Position numbers: made by a program. From Synechococcus sp. (lineage in GTDB: Bacteria > Cyanobacteriota > Cyanobacteriia > PCC-6307 > Cyanobiaceae), in the NCBI GenBank assembly GCA_047285535.1, contig JBJBDC010000001.1, positions 416,136 through 480,135 of the forward strand: a stretch of DNA of 64,000 nt. Reading direction: 5' to 3'. Shown in pieces: positions 43,001 through 52,000 of this stretch. Position 1 is the first letter of the stretch, and each line of letters opens with the position of its first letter.

Positions 43001-46000
43001 AAAACCATATTGAGGCTTGTAATCGATGGTTCTAGAATAAAGATTATTGTTTTCCAATCGCGTCACATTTGCTGATGCCCAAGGTCATGAGACTTTCTTT
43101 TTCTATCAAATGTTGTTAATACAGGGTCACCCCAAAACAGAAGCCACACTTTTGAAGTCATGAACAACGCTAGTCCTAGACTCTCAATCCAAATTTGGCA
43201 AGGAGTTCAAGGGACCGTCTTGAGTGTGATTCCTGCTGCTTTTCTTCTTGCAGGTCCACCTCCTCCCCCAATGCTTCCTATTGAAATTGAAAAGCCAGTT
43301 CCAAAAGAGCATCCTGGCTTGAAGGTGGAAAATTTCCAATTTGAAATTGATCAGAAAAATTTTAATTGTTCTGCAGGAGAACTGAATTCAGGTAACAAAG
43401 CACCATATGCCTACAGCCCATCAAACGAGTCTTTTGCTGGCGAACTGCAAATTCATGCAGCTCGATGCAAGACACGTTTTTAGACGAGAGTAGATGAAAA
43501 CATAATCCGCACGTCACACATCACAACAATCTGAGCTATCAGTCCATGAGCTTTCTAGGTCTGAACGTAGGGACTCATAATGTCAACTCTTTACTTGTTA
43601 ATTAACTACCAGATAAGTTGATCGAGGGTACTCTCATCAACATGAACTCCAGAATTGCTTAAGCCAAATGGATAAGCGACACTGAGACCCACAATGATGG
43701 AAATGCAACGAGCAGGATGATCAGTATTCTCGTCGTTATGACCCCGCACGGATAACTCGGAGAGACGGGCTACACCACTGGCTTCTGGTTCGAAGAATTT
43801 GCTGCTCTATATTTCATATTCAATGAAGCAGGAGCAACGATCCCATTCGCATCCCCGCAAGGAGAGTTGCCGACAATCGAACCCAAGAGCAACAGTTTGG
43901 ACACGGAGACAGAAACCATTTGACGGTTCAAGGCTGATTGTTTAGCCGCTCGATCATTCGCCACTAGCGCAAGGCCGTACTTCCTTTCAGCTCATTACTT
44001 TGACGCAGTTTTTAATCCCCGAGGACTCGCTCCTCTATAAGCCTTTGTAGACAGCGAATCATCGATTCAACTGATTGAAGATTTCTGGGCAGATTGCAAG
44101 TCTATCTTCGCTGTATGCCATGCTCCAATCGTTTTCATCATCGCTAAAGATCAGAATGGTGAGCCTATTGTCAAAGGACGAGAAGTGACTGGATTCACCA
44201 ATTCTGAAGCAGAGGCTATAGGCCTCAGCAAAATTGTGCCTCGGCTTCCAGAGCCAACAATGATTGCTAATTAATGGTGCCAAATATTCGAGAGGTAGCG
44301 ACTGGCAGTCTTATACATGCCAAGACGGCAATCTGATTACCGGTCAGAACCCGCGATCATTTGAAGCAGTGGCGAAACTCATACTTCGAGCTCTTGCTTG
44401 AAATCAGTCTAAAAATGAGCGGGATCCAATGGTCCTCACTGATACCTGACTCCATAGATTCTCTGGTTTCACAAGCCAGCCGATGCCGTCAATCAAGCAG
44501 CTCTGTGATTTGGCTCACAGGATCCCAGACATCAGGCACCATTAAGCGGAGGCAGTTTTAGCGTTACCATGAAAGAAATAGCAAGCAACAAACATTCCCA
44601 ACCTATCGTTAGGACTTTAAGTAATAGAAATATCAGCTCTTTCCAGTAATGGCCCCATTAAAGGGATCTTCTTCATCTTTGAAACCATCAATATAACTGG
44701 TTTTGTTCGATCCATCAGAGTCACAGGAGCCACAGGAGTCAAGATTCTGATCGACCGTTTCAAGTTCTTTGAGAATCTTTTTAGCTCCTTTATAGACCAA
44801 ATAACCAATACCTCCAAGAACGAGGGCTGGCAAAATTGGGACAGCACCACCGTTATATGACGCAAGGTCTTCAAGACTTAACTCTTGATCAACTGAGTCT
44901 TGGTTGAGGGTTGTTGTGTCAATCATGGTTTTGAATGTAGTAGAAGTGTTTGACTTCGGCATACACAACATCGCTGAGGTCAATCCGAAATGCGATGATC
45001 CAAATCACTAATCATAGTGATATTGATCACAACATCATCAAAGAAACAATGTCTTGCCCAAAGCTGTACTCTTCTCCTGTGTATTCGAGTTCAAAAGGTA
45101 TAACCTATGAAGAATATTGCCTCAGTTAATGCATCCTAAAGTCGATTAGATTCAATCGATCTACTCAAGGCCTGGTTCGTATTGTTGAAAGAACAAATAC
45201 ATGGGTCAAACACGAATGCAGATGGTTCGAATTATCATTTATCTTGCTTAAAGAGCAGTGTCAATTAACCTGAGTTGTTATTGCTACCAGAGTTCGAGGA
45301 GTAGCTCGCGGATTTGCTACTACTGTAACTGGAATAACAGGACCGACCAAAACCACCGCTAATCCTCTTCAAAGTCTCAGGCTTAATTTCCTCGTCAAGC
45401 TGCGCTGAATCTTCAGGTGTCTCTTCTAGAGATTGTGGTTTGGGTTCGGTCATGGTGTTTGGTGTCTTGAAGTGTTGGAACCAAAAGAGATGGCCACTCC
45501 CTCTTTAGACCCAAATGGCCTTAGTCTTCTGAGGAAACGATGAGAAATCAGCTCTTTGCTGTACTTCTGAATCCAACAGACTGAACGGATGTGACGGCCA
45601 TACGTGATTCGTGATGATGTTGCTCTGTGATTTTGAATACAGAGGACAGAATCAGTACAATCGAGAATTTCCGCATTGTCGCTCCGTTAACAGACAATAG
45701 GGTGTGCTATGAATAACCACAGAGCTTTCAATAGGACCCAGTGGTGTAACGAGCAAACAGTCCAGGCTTGATCACAGATCGTTGTTAGTTAGGGGAAGAT
45801 AGGTTTAATCGAGAGATTCGACGCTGTCCAGAACACGGCAAATTCCACTTCGACAACGAATGACATCACATCGTATGATCTTAGTAGTACTTGTCTGACT
45901 ATCAGATAAAGCAAGGTTTGTGGTGACTTCAATTACTCAGGCCAACATAAAATACCGATACTTTGATGATGATTCAGCTGTGCTAAGGGGATAAAAATGG

Positions 46001-49000: not shown

Positions 49001-52000
49001 CAAGTTATATGCAGCGGTGTATGCACTGAATCACTCACAAAGGTATCTAAGGTCCCACAGTGACTAGATAGATAGATTTCAAACCTCAATTCCACAATCG
49101 TTGAAAATACAACTCCTCAATCTCAACAATAAATGTTCAATAATTTTCGGCCTTGTAAGCCATAAATAATACTTAGGCAGTCTATGCTCTTTGTTCACGT
49201 GCAATCCACACATTCAAATATGAGCACATCAAATCCGGCCCTGAGAGACCAGTTCATCAATAAAATTAGAAAATTAGGTTAAATTGAATAACGCAAAAAG
49301 CGCGTAAATACGTATTAAATGAGACTCGAACAATGGTCAGATAGGTCAATATATGTTGGTCTGACAACTTAATAATTGCCTTGAATTGCTAACTTGTTTT
49401 AATCCTGAAGCGTTGAGACCCTGGCTCTTCATGCTTGTCGCATAAGCACAATATGTCTTGTTTTATCACAGGATAGACACATGAATCACAGCTCAAAATC
49501 TCTTCAATCAGATCATCCAAAATGTTGAGTTTATCAACCCTGTGTTTCGATCCTCAAACCACAAGCAAATGGCCACGGTACAACGAGTTACAAACTTATC
49601 TTGGCGGTCGGTATGGTTCAAATATTTGACTCGACGAGTCCATGGGTCAAGGCATAAACAGCTGCTTGAGTTCTATCTCTAACCCCTAACTTCTGCATCG
49701 CTGTACTCACATGGCTCTTGACTGTCTCTACTGAAAGAAAAAGGCTTTGCGCAATCTCGTTATTCTTCATTCCTTGAATGATACAACGAATGACTTCTAG
49801 CTCCCTTTCTGACAATGGGTCAACAAGCGTGGGCAATGGCTTTACCTTTGCTGTAGCAACTTCGCGTACAGCTTTTGGGAAGTAAATTCCACCACTAGTG
49901 GTAACAGTTAAGGCTTGAATGAAATCACCTGAGCCAGTACCAATAGAAGAATTAAACATCACTCCATCAGCTCCTGCTTCCATTGCTTCTTGAACAACCT
50001 CTGGCGTCTCCCTATTAAGAAAAATCATGGCCTTAAGTTCTGACGATTTTTTTTTGGCAGTCTCTACGAGCCTAATTCCATAGCCCGTTTCTAATTCTTC
50101 GCTGGTAATCAAGATATGTGGGTTGCTTTCTTGTTGAATTTGTAGCGCTTCATCTTCAGTTGTTGCTCCGCCTACGAGTGATTGCAAAATAGGAGTGCAA
50201 AGGCAAAGCGCGGAGAGCGTCAAGCGGTTTTTTGAACAAACTAATACCCTTTTGTGTGCCAATAATTTCTGACAGACAGCTGAGGCCTTCTTCATTGATT
50301 GTTCAGATGGATTGATCCTCACGTCTTGATGTTTGTGATTTAACAATCGTAGCTCACATCCTATCTTCAGCAATTTTCCACCGAATAACGAGAGATCACA
50401 ACGTTCAAACCTTGGCAAAGTTTTGATTGGATGCTCACTTGGTGCCAACGTTGCTGGTTTCTATTGATATTGAGAATGACTAAAAATCCGAGAATTCATA
50501 ATGGTGGATTGAGTAATGTTTCAACTCTGCACGTTCGTCGCTACTGAGTCTTGATTTGTTCGATTGCTTTTGCTCTTAGCCCTTGTCCCATCCTTAAGGA
50601 AGGTCTCATGGCGCCCCCTTCGGCCTTAGCCCTCTAAGGACTGCGACCAGTATCAGCTGCATGAAAACCTCGCCTTACCCAGCATCAAATCCAAATGATC
50701 AAGACACAACTCAGCTGCTGCTTACGCGATCGGTGGCCGCCAACGACAAAGCCGATGCATAAGTCAGCCAAATGTGTTATATATAACGTACGCCAAAGAA
50801 CCCAGTAAAGGGACCACTGAGCGCGAACCATAAAGTTGAATCAATGAATCAAACAACACTCATTGCCAAAAGAGGTTTGCCTGCTTCAAGCGACAGTAAG
50901 CAAAAGCAACCCAAGCAAGAACCCGAACTCATCACTTGGGAGGAATTGATCGGCAGACAATAAATGATGCTCACCTAGTTGATCAGATTCCTTTTGAACA
51001 GTCACTGAGAAGGTGGCTTGAGGGTTGAGAGCTGATGAAGAACAGTCTTTATCCCATTGATGTTTTGCTCTATCAACACTATTGATGCGCTTTGAAGGAA
51101 TGGATGATCCATCGTTTCTCATGGCTTGAACTGCCGGCCGACAACACCTGCAGTGGCACCTCACCAGGACTGCCACACGCTGAACAGCCACATGGCTGAC
51201 CACCAAAGACGTTGTTCTGAGATGGATTGAAGGCGGCAGTCATATCCAGCTGCATGAAGAAGGGATTGAGTTACCTGCTGACTGCAAAAATTCGGCACTC
51301 TCAAGTCGTACTGGCAAAGGAGCCATGTCCAAAAGAATCATCGCGGTGTTATTGCTGATGGTCTCATCAACGGCACCTGCAATCGCTCATCCTCGCCACC
51401 ATCGTGGTGCTTACGACCGTCACCATGATGAGGTCCACAACTACCACTATCGTCGCCCTTCAGAGAGACGAGTTGTCAAAACATACAGGCGTCCTCTCGA
51501 GAGGGACGTGGTTACAACCTACAGACTTCCCACAAAAAAGAGGTATCAAAGAATTTACACGCGCCCTTATGAAAGAGATGTCGTGACTAGCTACAGGCTT
51601 CCTGTTGAACAAAGGTCGAACAGGATTTACAAGCATCCTGTTCAACGCGAAGTCATCAAAAGCTACAGAAGGCCTGAAGACAATCGTTATCGGCACGAGC
51701 GCTATGGGACTCAAGTCAGCAGAGCTGATACCAATAGTTGTGTTGAGGGAAGTGTCATTGGTGGACTTTTAGGTGCTGGTCTCGGCGCGGTGTTATCCAG
51801 AGGAGAAGGACGTTGGATTGGAGTACCTCTTGGTGGTGCAGCAGGTGCCCTAGTGGGGTGCCAGGTTGATGGAGGTTAATGAACTTCAGGAAGGCATGGT
51901 TACCTTCTTGGACTTCAGCCATAAATAGGCCTTAGCTGGAGTCAGCGGAGAGATTCCAATGACTCCTAACTCAACATCTCCTCGTAACGGCCATCAGTTC

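Follow-up and report, generated by a model that had tools for sequence, protein, structure and literature searches.

A double-glycine-leader peptide and a nearby cyanophycin synthetase (CphA)-like ATP-grasp ligase in a Synechococcus sp. genome appear to be a precursor-ligase pair of an undescribed RiPP-like family, in which the ligase would activate a carboxylate of the peptide core and the core cysteines would form a disulfide; we put the probability of this reading at roughly 60%. The window is a stretch of 64,000 nucleotides (contig JBJBDC010000001.1, positions 416,136 to 480,135), and coordinates are counted from its first letter. A genome-wide survey's note had proposed such a family, and the evidence laid out below supports it. 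The features of interest are as follows.

46044..47645, minus strand: CphA-like ATP-grasp ligase, 533 aa from the ATG at 47645 (538 aa from a TTG at 47660)
47672..47925, minus strand: precursor copy B, in which a frameshift of one base falls near 47777-47781; second in the genome among matches to the peptide profile (E 1.7e-5)
47968..48357, plus strand: candidate gene, a 129-aa CxxC ORF that may be thioredoxin-like, placed between precursor A and copy B on the opposite strand
48490..48765, minus strand: precursor peptide A, 91 aa, from ORF and translation
48493..48534, minus strand: core motif of precursor A, C1-x2-T4-x-D6-T7-G-V-M-G-C12-P-G, from a motif scan
48766..48960, minus strand: upstream region of precursor A, shared with two further peptide genes of the double-glycine type in the island
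49618..50448, minus strand: LuxR/GerE-type regulator with a weak receiver domain (Pfam GerE E 7e-21; Response_reg 24.6 bits, cut-off 30.2), context only

Precursor A consists of a leader of the double-glycine type (residues 1-37, ending in ...SLSGG), a spacer of 40 residues and a 14-residue core, CTATSDTGVMGCPG, with the stop codon directly after it; the double-glycine leader and the C-terminal sequence are as the survey's note had described. It is intact and is the top match of the peptide profile in its own genome (E 2.4e-21), where the motif is limited, as claimed, to the two copies beside the ligase. A distance of 830 bp, holding an opposite-strand ORF, separates it from the ligase. Its upstream region is 70.5% identical (155/220 aligned bases) to that of the peptide gene at 41526-41720 and 59.6% identical (130/218) to that of the peptide gene at 45265-45453, whereas the upstream region of copy B reaches only 34% identity with that of precursor A in the same comparison. 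The leader and upstream region of precursor A are of the resident type, unlike those of copy B. The LuxR/GerE-type regulator lies upstream of the peptide and ligase genes on the same strand.

Between copy B and the ligase ATG downstream of it are 26 nt. It starts with the ATG at 47925, its leader ends in ...SASGG, and the leader frame ends in a stop at 47731; the +2 frame continues to ...NCTASSDTGLMCCPS with a stop at 47672-47674, and the core in this frame is CTASSDTGLMCCPS. Since the probable source run (X2, depth about 200) shows no indel, the frameshift is real in this genome, and the ligase-adjacent copy is a pseudogene here. A marine metagenome run (X8, depth 9.4) is also without the extra base. 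The intact second copy that had been reported from a relative has support, at low depth, from run X4: one contig (depth 3.1) has an additional base after 47777, exactly at the frame switch, giving a single open frame. Natural variants of both window peptides shift towards the family consensus: those of precursor A in run X5 include V86M, which gives the consensus MM, and in copy B the last residue changes from S to G.

A search that started from the peptide listed 48 peptides (42 at E <= 1e-3), 46 of a main type and two of a variant type, and all of them terminate in the motif, with a spacer of 5 to about 80 residues. The consensus of the core, which forms the last 13-15 residues, is C-x-x-(T/S)-x-D-(T/S)-G-M-M-G-C-x-G, and the 12 residues of the C1-C12 motif are almost invariant: C1, D6, G8, M10, G11 and C12 are fixed in 46/46 main-type peptides, while position 4 is T or S, and position 6 Asp, in 48/48. 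The tail past the motif has one to three residues; the C-terminal residue of the main type is G (43/46) or S (3/46), and that of the variant type is P. Most members carry a double-glycine leader and some a Sec-type signal. The motif in the survey's title is the family consensus; the window copies read V-M and L-M-C.

Twelve loci of ligase homologues were fetched, and upstream DNA was usable in nine of them (eight distinct; L010 and L011 are near-duplicates, as had been cautioned), L003, L008 and L012 having none. All nine encode a same-strand small ORF that terminates with the motif or with a shortened variant of it, in agreement with the earlier claim; it stands immediately before the ligase in six, with one MauE-CxxC gene intervening in three, and in 9/9 a purine-rich ribosome-binding site, judged by eye, precedes the ATG. 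The loci with this conserved neighbourhood span three phyla, and it is this neighbourhood that suggests modification of the peptide by the ligase. A signal-peptide precursor adjoins the ligase in L004, NHLP bacteriocin exporters score above cut-off in L006, the L005 ligase carries a fused GT41 domain, and LanM accompanies the pair in some loci; the related loci show no further conserved tailoring or release enzymes.

The CxxC proteins had also been read as a link across loci. A CxxC protein is indeed nearby; however, the metagenome proteins (L005-L007) match Pfam MauE, with an invariant CGC and a CxxC domain, and have no detectable similarity to the window ORF. In the available part of a preprint (bioRxiv 10.64898/2026.03.05.709764), MauE is described as taking the place of DsbB and as having a CXC active site. 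The window ORF carries CGLC and WPT motifs (by eye), and its supposed thioredoxin nature has some backing from Pfam Thioredoxin_2 (E 1.9e-4), but at 22.2 bits against a cut-off of 27; Thioredoxin itself gives E 0.0099. It has no relatives beyond its own cluster, and its single-sequence model, at a pLDDT of 44.5, is too poor to be of use. The window cluster holds no exporter or protease, and the five C39 ABC transporters of the genome all lie outside it.

The ligase (its 533-aa version is cluster P0001) has, in the 538-residue numbering, an N domain (about 12-130), an ATP-grasp G domain (about 130-420) and an M-domain stub (about 420-538). It has no Pfam match above cut-off, and the NCBIfam cyanophycin synthetase model gives 103.6 bits against a cut-off of 850, whereas a PDB profile search finds CphA at E 8.4e-32, all much as the survey's note had stated. 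Ten clusters, its own included, lie at E <= 2.6e-27 in a word search, followed by a gap and then by canonical CphA at 5.8e-19; an exhaustive profile search turned up about 30 representatives in 1.84e9, the values then jumping from 3e-72 to 6e-51. For the predicted model (pLDDT 88.8), Foldseek ranks CphA1 and CphA2 first (E 5.5e-27), and VIA gives 7wae_A (Z 18.8, model 12-538 against chain 1-616) and CphA2 7ta5 (Z 17.8); ArgX/LysX-LysW structures (Z 15.5-16.3) and RimK (13.5-13.9) match the ATP-grasp core. Judged by this model, the ligase is clearly an offshoot of CphA in fold and architecture.

The catalytic residues K171, K211, E248, E255, R257, D377, E395 and N397 are each found in 35-38 of the 38 family sequences; R257, the counterpart of the acyl-phosphate arginine R309 of TeCphA1, is kept in all 38, and the ATP/Mg residues are kept too. 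By contrast with CphA1, the position of TeCphA1 E215 is hydrophobic in 35 of the 36 sequences that have a residue there, that of H267 is N or D in 38/38, N394 is lost, and that of R458 is G, A, W, S, I or N in 36/37. With the roles of the CphA1 substrate residues taken from the part of PMC9427784 that was available, the alignment indicates that the ligase has lost the residues that bind the cyanophycin Arg side chain and the incoming aspartate, and that its substrate pocket is remodelled relative to CphA.

Prediction of the peptide-ligase complex gave a median of 0.43 (runs 0.53, 0.12 and 0.43) against 0.01 for the best control, with the runs agreeing in at least 39% of contacts and a partner pLDDT of at least 39; it yielded no contacts. 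The mark used is reached by 116/157 solved complexes and 2/215 mismatched pairs, and scores of 0.60 or less include only 18/157 solved complexes and both of the passing mismatches, so that the prediction lends weak support to the pairing.

A possible pathway can be described as follows. The small gene would give an exported peptide, mostly with a double-glycine leader and sometimes with a Sec-type one. In the cytoplasm, the ligase, a shortened descendant of cyanophycin synthetase with a vestigial M domain, would bind the core rather than the leader; such recognition is suggested by the signal-peptide precursor beside the ligase in L004 and by the leader and upstream region of precursor A, which differ from those of copy B. 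With ATP, one core carboxylate would become an acyl phosphate, to be captured by a nucleophile other than the kind of free amino acid that CphA uses. Once the peptide is exported, its two invariant cysteines may form a disulfide, to which the MauE-CxxC oxidase would be dedicated in some loci. The side chain of the invariant Asp6 is our tentative choice for the activated carboxylate, at a little under even odds; the side chain would then end up in an ester with the invariant Thr/Ser4, in an aspartimide or in an amide with an external amine, although a Thr4-Asp6 ester would make an unusually small ring, which speaks against it. The C-terminal alpha-carboxylate, as in CphA, is a somewhat weaker candidate; CphA, GshF and Ddl, the nearest relatives of the ligase, all activate alpha-carboxylates. 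Some other group is unlikely.

Known systems resemble the pair in part. The ligase follows CphA1 and CphA2 in fold and domain order (N domain, ATP-grasp G domain, beginning of the M domain) and has a length near that of CphA2 and the same ATP-grasp catalytic set, but it is without the M-domain active site, its Arg- and Asp-binding residues are replaced, and its similarity is remote (best single-sequence PDB match E 3.4e-15; 13-16% identity in structural alignments). To our knowledge, CphA is not paired with a ribosomal peptide gene, as this ligase is in all nine loci with upstream DNA. Graspetides (microviridin/omega-ester) likewise have an ATP-grasp gene beside a leader-bearing precursor with Thr/Ser and Asp in the core and, as in some loci here, a double-glycine leader with an ABC exporter. 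However, the present ligase belongs to another ATP-grasp branch, nearest to CphA, GshF and Ddl and without a RimK-type Pfam match, the usual graspetide pattern is reversed in that the core is nearly invariant and the leader varies, and the one hydroxyl-carboxyl pair that is fixed stands at i and i+2. The main text of the graspetide survey PMC8939145 mentions no cyanophycin, CphA, MMGC, thioredoxin or DoxX, which agrees with the earlier claim that the motif is not covered there. The pheganomycin ligase PGM1 and the peptide aminoacyl-tRNA ligases (PEARLs) likewise attach a non-ribosomal unit at one end of a ribosomally made peptide, and PMC7794033, as far as available, mentions an ATP-grasp enzyme in peptide ligation. 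PGM1, however, works at the N-terminus of peptides, the PEARLs draw on aminoacyl-tRNA, and no sequence relation to either was seen.

In LysX/ArgX and RimK, whose structures match the catalytic core of the ligase closely, the target of an ATP-grasp enzyme is a carboxylate at the conserved C-terminus of a small, ribosomally made protein. It may be that the peptide is not cyclised but serves as a primer or carrier, the ligase adding one or more units (amino acids or another amine) to the C-terminus or Asp6, as in CphA primer extension, RimK on S6 or the loading of LysW by LysX, so that a ribosomal peptide would come to carry a tail or adduct of non-ribosomal origin. Descent from a primer-dependent polymerase and the motif at the extreme C-terminus in 48/48 peptides, whatever the spacer, agree with this, as does the activation of the primer's C-terminal backbone carboxylate by CphA (PMC9427784, available part). 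We nevertheless consider it unlikely, as the residues holding the incoming aspartate are lost, there is no M domain for Arg addition, the C-terminal residue and tail length vary, and no tailoring or release enzymes are conserved. LysW and S6 are cytoplasmic, not exported, and are carriers or Glu-tailed, whereas the present family has export leaders and two invariant cysteines and no conserved downstream pathway enzymes.

It is less probable still that, though the family may be real elsewhere, the cluster in this cyanobacterium is a recently acquired island fragment that makes nothing. Forty-five other genomes of the genus lack the cluster, as do 36 by protein search, which makes it dispensable here and perhaps a cluster in decay; the GC content of 0.37-0.40 over 46000-48500 against 0.45-0.58 in the flanks, the frameshift of copy B at depth about 200, the orphan CxxC ORF and the cluster's want of an exporter, which the survey's note had recorded, point the same way. 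Yet the ligase ORF is intact, its nine listed environmental variants being five synonymous and four non-synonymous changes, precursor A, likewise unbroken, has taken on the resident leader and upstream region, the genome encodes five C39 ABC transporters, and the stretch is kept at 95-100% identity in runs of at least three further studies. That a CphA2-type cyanophycin enzyme merely happens to lie near an ordinary disulfide bacteriocin that is not modified is very improbable: the architecture resembles CphA2 (7ta5), and look-alikes in the Atlas include clusters named putative cyanophycin synthetase, but the neighbourhood is kept in 9/9 loci of three phyla, the Glu for the cyanophycin Arg side chain is replaced by hydrophobic residues, and the NCBIfam CphA score is far under its cut-off. 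Moreover, among 401 Acidobacteriota genomes the ligase occurs in the centre genome (G072) only and the peptide in none, G072 included, where a contig end cuts the peptide site; both genes are missing from the other 400, many of which carry true CphA. The peptide search found its positive controls, G070 and G071, with one match each, and among 401 Gemmatimonadota genomes the peptide occurs in the centre genome (G070) only.

The precursor-ligase pair is therefore the reading that we prefer and, if it is true, the peptide would represent an undescribed kind of enzyme-modified ribosomal peptide.

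The evidence establishes a conserved pair in which an ATP-grasp enzyme of CphA descent, its catalytic residues intact and its acceptor pocket remodelled, stands beside a small peptide whose core has invariant Cys, Thr/Ser, Asp and Cys residues behind export leaders, and which is accompanied in some loci by oxidase and exporter genes. In the window the pair and its neighbours are arranged as follows.

46044-47645 (-): CphA-like ATP-grasp ligase, 533 aa from the ATG at 47645 or 538 aa from the TTG at 47660 (residues are numbered on the 538-aa form)
47672-47925 (-): copy B, a frameshifted second precursor; start at 47925, leader frame stops at 47731, and the +2 frame runs on to ...NCTASSDTGLMCCPS with its stop at 47672-47674
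47968-48357 (+): CxxC ORF, 129 aa, with a CGLC motif, between copy B and precursor A
48490-48765 (-): precursor A, 91 aa; double-glycine leader ending ...SLSGG, a 40-residue spacer, and the C-terminus CTATSDTGVMGCPG followed by the stop
49618-50448: LuxR/GerE-type regulator, upstream of precursor A

The stop codon of copy B (47672-47674) lies 26 nt ahead of the ligase ATG (47645). GC content is 0.37-0.40 over 46000-48500 and 0.45-0.58 in the flanks, and the whole window is a gene-poor cyanobacterial island in which a phycobilisome linker and an OprB-SLH porin are encoded and many ORFs match no family. Promoter-like sites in 44400-50600 number 12 against 15.5 expected and terminator-like sites 6 against 4.5 expected; no Rfam match was found over 40000-51000 at E <= 0.1.

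Twelve loci encoding relatives of the ligase (L001-L012) were fetched, from three genomes and nine metagenomes, of which L003, L008 and L012 had no usable upstream DNA. The genome-wide survey's note had claimed that a same-strand small ORF with the motif accompanies the ligase's relatives, and this holds in all nine loci with upstream DNA. Six of these ORFs end in the main type of motif (L001, L002, L004, L005, L006 and L007) and three in a shorter variant, TC-x-x-T-x-DVTCP (L009, L010 and L011, the last two being near-duplicates). By eye, a purine-rich ribosome-binding site precedes the ATG in 9/9 cases. The motif ORF ends 0-84 nt ahead of the ligase start in six loci, and one gene intervenes in L005-L007.

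A reverse search with an alignment of nine of these peptides as the query yielded a list of 48 proteins, 49-122 aa long, with E <= 1e-3 for 42, and in every one of the 48 listed the motif forms the C-terminal end. The core reads C1-x-x-(T/S)4-x-D6-(T/S)7-G8-M9-M10-G11-C12 followed by a short tail. Columns were counted over the 46 main-type peptides: C1, D6, G8, M10, G11 and C12 are each present in 46/46 and M9 in 45/46; position 4 is T in 43 and S in 3, position 7 is T in 38 and S in 8, and the tail is PG (24), SG (8), TG (5), GTG (4), PS (3) or AG (2). In the two variant peptides C1, T4, D6 and the final Cys are retained, the first three with the same spacing, and overall Thr/Ser4 and Asp6 are conserved in 48/48 peptides. 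Co-folding of the ligase with precursor A, ATP and Mg lends weak support to the pairing, the median score being 0.43 (runs 0.53, 0.12 and 0.43) against 0.01 for the best control. Of 157 solved complexes 116 reach the mark for this score, as do 2 of 215 mismatched pairs; scores no higher than 0.60 belong to only 18 of those 157 complexes and to both mismatched pairs that passed. The runs agree in at least 39% of contacts with a partner pLDDT of at least 39, and the score says nothing on which carboxylate faces ATP.

The ligase had been described as having no Pfam family, and indeed nothing exceeds a Pfam cut-off: Dala_Dala_lig_C (0.014) and GARS_A (0.055) are the only matches at E <= 0.1, and some of its relatives have at best marginal generic ATP-grasp_5 matches. 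The NCBIfam cyanophycin synthetase model is likewise far below cut-off, as stated before (TIGR02068, 103.6 bits against 850, covering protein residues 98-418 only), and the NCBIfam RimK model gives 15.2 bits against a cut-off of 143.4. The reported resemblance to CphA in the PDB was reproduced (E 3.4e-15 for the single sequence, 8.4e-32 for a family profile), and CphA2 chains are matched by the sequence at E 9.5e-11 to 2e-10. An AlphaFold model built on a 10-sequence alignment has a mean pLDDT of 88.8; a Foldseek search with this predicted structure returns CphA1 and CphA2 chains first, from E 5.5e-27, and then GshF and Ddl. By VIA-align, model residues 12-538 superpose on residues 1-616 of TeCphA1 (7wae_A) with Z 18.8 and rmsd 6.7 over 496 aligned residues, and residues 9-538 on residues 6-580 of CphA2 (7ta5) with Z 17.8 and rmsd 6.9 over 486. 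Therefore, the ligase has an N domain, an ATP-grasp G domain and no more than the first part of an M domain, as in CphA2. Its look-alikes in the Protein Atlas are generic ATP-grasp and putative cyanophycin synthetase clusters only.

Residues of TeCphA1 were mapped on the ligase by three alignments: one from phmmer, one made by MAFFT together with eight CphA sequences, and one of 38 family members. According to PMC9427784, R309 holds the acyl phosphate and H267 stabilises it, E215 binds the Arg side chain of the primer, N394 binds the incoming Asp, and R458 binds the alpha-carboxylate of the incoming Asp.

Table. TeCphA1 residues, their ligase counterparts and conservation in the ligase family
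R309: R257; 38/38 family sequences
ATP/Mg catalytic set: K171, K211, E248, E255, D377, E395 and N397; 35-38 of 38
E215: L166; hydrophobic in 35/36 sequences with a residue there
H267: N217; N or D in 38/38
N394: A340 or S342, depending on the alignment; Asn lost, loop two residues shorter
R458: G403; G, A, W, S, I or N in 36/37, Arg in 1/37

Judged from these alignments, the carboxylate-activating machinery of the ligase is intact and the pockets for cyanophycin and aspartate are gone. CphA1 is an enzyme of about 870 aa, the Mur-ligase-like M domain of which adds Arg; CphA2, with N, G and truncated M domains in about 600-650 aa, polymerises beta-Asp-Arg and holds the Arg side chain by an acidic residue. 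The predicted fold of the ligase agrees with CphA2 in architecture only. The ligase is not a cyanophycin synthetase of the CphA1 kind, since three defining features are lacking: the 538-aa protein does not reach the full-length CphA1 model TIGR02068; no Mur-ligase M domain is found by Pfam, and the model ends at about residue 616 of the 877-aa CphA1 chain; and the residues for the primer Arg (E215) and the incoming Asp (N394, R458), as well as H267, are not kept in the family. The ATP-grasp catalytic residues of CphA1, including the acyl-phosphate Arg, are kept, and the enzyme is putatively one that works like an ATP-grasp peptide ligase.

Graspetides carry side-chain ester or amide macrocycles, from Thr, Ser or Lys to Asp or Glu, made by a ligase of the microviridin/RimK type. 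The system described here resembles theirs in logic; however, the ligase appears to come from another branch of the ATP-grasp superfamily, and the core is invariant and the leaders are interchangeable. Known ATP-grasp enzymes with ribosomal peptides as substrates belong to the RimK/microviridin side of the superfamily. The peptide has no model in Pfam or NCBIfam (June 2026 release), and nothing in NCBIfam comes near a cut-off for the ligase. Literature searches, which reached few subscription journals, gave nothing relevant for the motif strings (one chance occurrence in an oomycete paper) or for a link between cyanophycin synthetase or CphA, ATP-grasp and RiPPs (one genome report on another subject), and the main text of a graspetide survey (PMC8939145) lacks the relevant terms. 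The system is best placed with the ATP-grasp-associated ribosomal peptides, and there is a real chance that its chemistry defines a new class.

In the mechanism that we propose, the ligase would bind the core in the cytoplasm and phosphorylate one of its carboxylates, and the acyl phosphate would be captured by a nucleophile other than free aspartate; the two cysteines may form a disulfide after export. Extension with free aspartate, in the manner of CphA, is argued against by the loss of the Arg that holds the incoming alpha-carboxylate. The side chain of Asp6 is the carboxylate that we favour, at a probability of about 0.45: it is the only one kept in 48/48 peptides and has a fixed spacing from an invariant hydroxyl, whereas the C-terminal residue and the tail length vary. 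The C-terminus of the peptide is a possible, less probable site of activation, as the nearest relatives of the ligase, CphA, GshF and Ddl, all activate alpha-carboxylates, and the motif is anchored to the C-terminus whatever the length of the spacer.

A leader of the GG/GA type is recognised by a simple pattern in 43/48 peptides, and several of the others have, by eye, Sec-type signals or lipoprotein-like N-termini. Two of the motif peptides, P0118 and P0121, have no double-glycine leader and share a conserved N-terminal segment of about 45 residues (...FRG.DGVLY.IP..AL.QYAV...). In the window, precursor A has its leader and about 200 nt of upstream DNA in common, by homology, with two other genes for double-glycine peptides; the upstream region is 70.5% identical to that of the gene at 41526-41720 over 220 bases and 59.6% identical to that of the gene at 45265-45453. 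The upstream region of copy B (34% identity) is unrelated to that of precursor A. Therefore, precursor A looks like a core of the family placed behind a resident leader and control region. This arrangement fits export by one of the host's own transporters, and it also fits a ligase that reads the core and not the leader; the latter is further supported by L004, in which a precursor with a signal peptide adjoins the ligase.

The two other genes, 41526-41720(+) and 45265-45453(-), encode double-glycine-leader peptides with Ser/Tyr-rich cores (...SGGWGRSCYYSYS... and ...SGGFGRSCYSSYSS..., respectively), and with precursor A they seem to make up a small set of related peptide cassettes in the island. 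Several further ORFs of the window were noted. In the 116-aa ORF at 44633-44983(-), a hydrophobic segment resembling a glycine zipper comes after a double-glycine site (...SYNGG), and the ORF weakly matches the lactobin A/cerein 7B family of class IIb bacteriocins (E 0.0037, 17 bits; cut-off 21.5). The 184-aa protein at 51325-51879(+) has a signal-like N-terminus, several basic repeats of the type R-x-P-x-E-R-x-V-V-x-x-Y-R and a C-terminal glycine-zipper 2TM domain (Rick_17kDa_Anti, E 1.2e-8). Two Coq4-like ORFs of 234 aa each, at 11169-11873(+) (E 1.3e-12) and 23799-24503(-) (E 1e-5), sit inside a long run of ORFs without a family match.

Export genes are found in related loci. L006 encodes an NHLP HlyD protein (310.8 bits, cut-off 156.2), an NHLP C39 ABC transporter (1049, cut-off 853.3), a second NHLP ABC transporter (829.8, cut-off 709.4) and a bacteriocin-type cNMP-binding protein just below its cut-off (159.6, cut-off 161.05), and the same set begins in L005 before the contig ends. 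Leader and C39 exporter, the combination that marks double-glycine RiPP precursors, are thus both present. No exporter was found in the cluster of the window; the genome itself has five C39 ABC transporters, all outside the window, the nearest about 35 kb beyond its end.

In L005-L007, the gene between precursor and ligase encodes a membrane protein of 311-395 aa with a Pfam MauE match (E 2e-8 to 3e-10) and an invariant CGC; CxxC and FPT motifs lie in its C-terminal segment. At E <= 0.05, Pfam gives no thioredoxin match to the C-terminal half, the thioredoxin-like character of which is read by eye from the CxxC and FPT motifs. MauE is reported to be able to replace DsbB and to have a CXC active site (bioRxiv 10.64898/2026.03.05.709764), and MauE homologues are noted in candidate RiPP clusters with Cys-rich precursors (PMC7794033). 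The fusion would serve a peptide as its dedicated oxidase, of the DsbB/DsbA kind and in a single chain. L005 encodes a fusion of the ligase with a GT41 (O-GlcNAc-transferase-like) domain (7962-11000(+), 1012 aa), the cluster P0008 (822 aa, precomputed PF13844) has the same fusion, and P0124 (984 aa) is long enough for another, which hints that some members of the family may also glycosylate the peptide. In L010 (3504-6728(-)) and in L011 the adjacent gene upstream of the variant precursor, in divergent orientation, encodes a class II lanthipeptide synthetase (LanM, 918 bits); none was seen in the shorter L009 contig. The L010/L011 precursor ends in ...TRCGKQTCAATVDVTCP and, since it has three Cys and several Thr, could be modified twice.

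The survey's note had also placed a thioredoxin-like CxxC gene beside the ligase. For the window ORF this stands in part: it has a sub-cut-off Pfam Thioredoxin_2 match (E 1.9e-4, 22.2 bits against 27) and, by eye, CGLC and WPT motifs; it shows no similarity to the MauE-CxxC fusions of the metagenome loci. A single thioredoxin family common to all loci was accordingly rejected (BLASTP against the fusions gave E 59, E 2.8 and no alignment; hhalign probability 0.2%). No homologue of the CxxC ORF was found beyond its own cluster, a PDB sequence search gave nothing below E 0.099, and its single-sequence model (pLDDT 44.5) is unusable. On the way from precursor A to copy B the ORF lies antisense, only 42 nt from the start of copy B. 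Its assignment as a thioredoxin is weak, and that it is part of the system is possible but unproven.

Contigs from four sequencing runs were compared over 45900-48900. The frameshift of copy B, reported before, is real: neither X2, the probable source run (depth about 200), nor the marine metagenome X8 (depth 9.4) has an indel at the site. The further claim that copy B is intact in a relative is supported by one X4 contig with an extra base after 47777, at a low depth of 3.1. This allele is open from leader to motif because the extra base falls where the two frames meet, and an open copy B is therefore likely, not proven. In run X5, a V86M variant gives precursor A the consensus Met-Met, and two changes turn the last residue of copy B from Ser to the consensus Gly. 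The nine listed differences in the ligase among the variants, five synonymous and four non-synonymous, are a small sample that fits purifying selection.

Both members of the pair are rare. A word-based search found 10 ligase clusters, the window's own included, at E <= 2.6e-27, canonical CphA following from 5.8e-19. An exhaustive profile search of 1.84e9 representatives gave 30 near full-length proteins at E <= 3.0e-72, followed by a gap to 5.8e-51; in addition, a few short fragments resemble the C-terminal part that is specific to the family. In 36 genomes of the same genus nothing matched at family level, the best hit being an 876-aa CphA-like ORF at 3.4e-12, and the DNA of 47600-48800 is absent from 45 genomes of the genus. 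A full-length ligase match occurs in just one of 401 Acidobacteriota genomes, the centre genome G072; the other 54 matches at E <= 1e-20 are no better than 6.1e-36 and cover the ATP-grasp part only, in ORFs of 618-1309 aa. The peptide profile matched none of these 401, G072 included, where the site is cut off by the contig end. Among 401 Gemmatimonadota genomes it matched only the centre genome, G070, and the positive controls G070 and G071 gave one match each. In the window's own genome the profile matches only the two copies beside the ligase, and two more hits at E ~0.4 match the leader only.

It is tempting, if rather improbable, to regard the enzyme as a descendant of cyanophycin synthetase that was retargeted from the end of a polymer to the end of a ribosomal peptide. 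It would need no leader and would act on 12 core residues that do not vary between Cyanobacteria, Acidobacteriota and Gemmatimonadota. The invariance of the core points to a single conserved task outside the cell and not to a toxin in an arms race. The peptide might be secreted and bind metal or be redox-active through its Cys...Asp...Met-Met...Cys loop; alternatively, ATP-grasp chemistry might here make a bond of a new type, for instance a macrocycle at the C-terminus, an aspartimide formed by the enzyme or an adduct primed on a ribosomal peptide. Either a conserved extracellular peptide or a new bond type would, if true, make this a new RiPP class. The system as proposed would represent a second, independent recruitment of ATP-grasp enzymes to ribosomal peptides, from a biopolymer synthetase, and with an inverted logic in which the core is invariant and recognised by the enzyme and the leaders are interchangeable. 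Made up of a substrate of 14 residues and a single enzyme of about 530 aa, it is small enough for direct tests. A new peptide modification could come to light, as could the way in which CphA-type enzymes change their substrate and the extracellular role of a peptide core that is conserved across three phyla.
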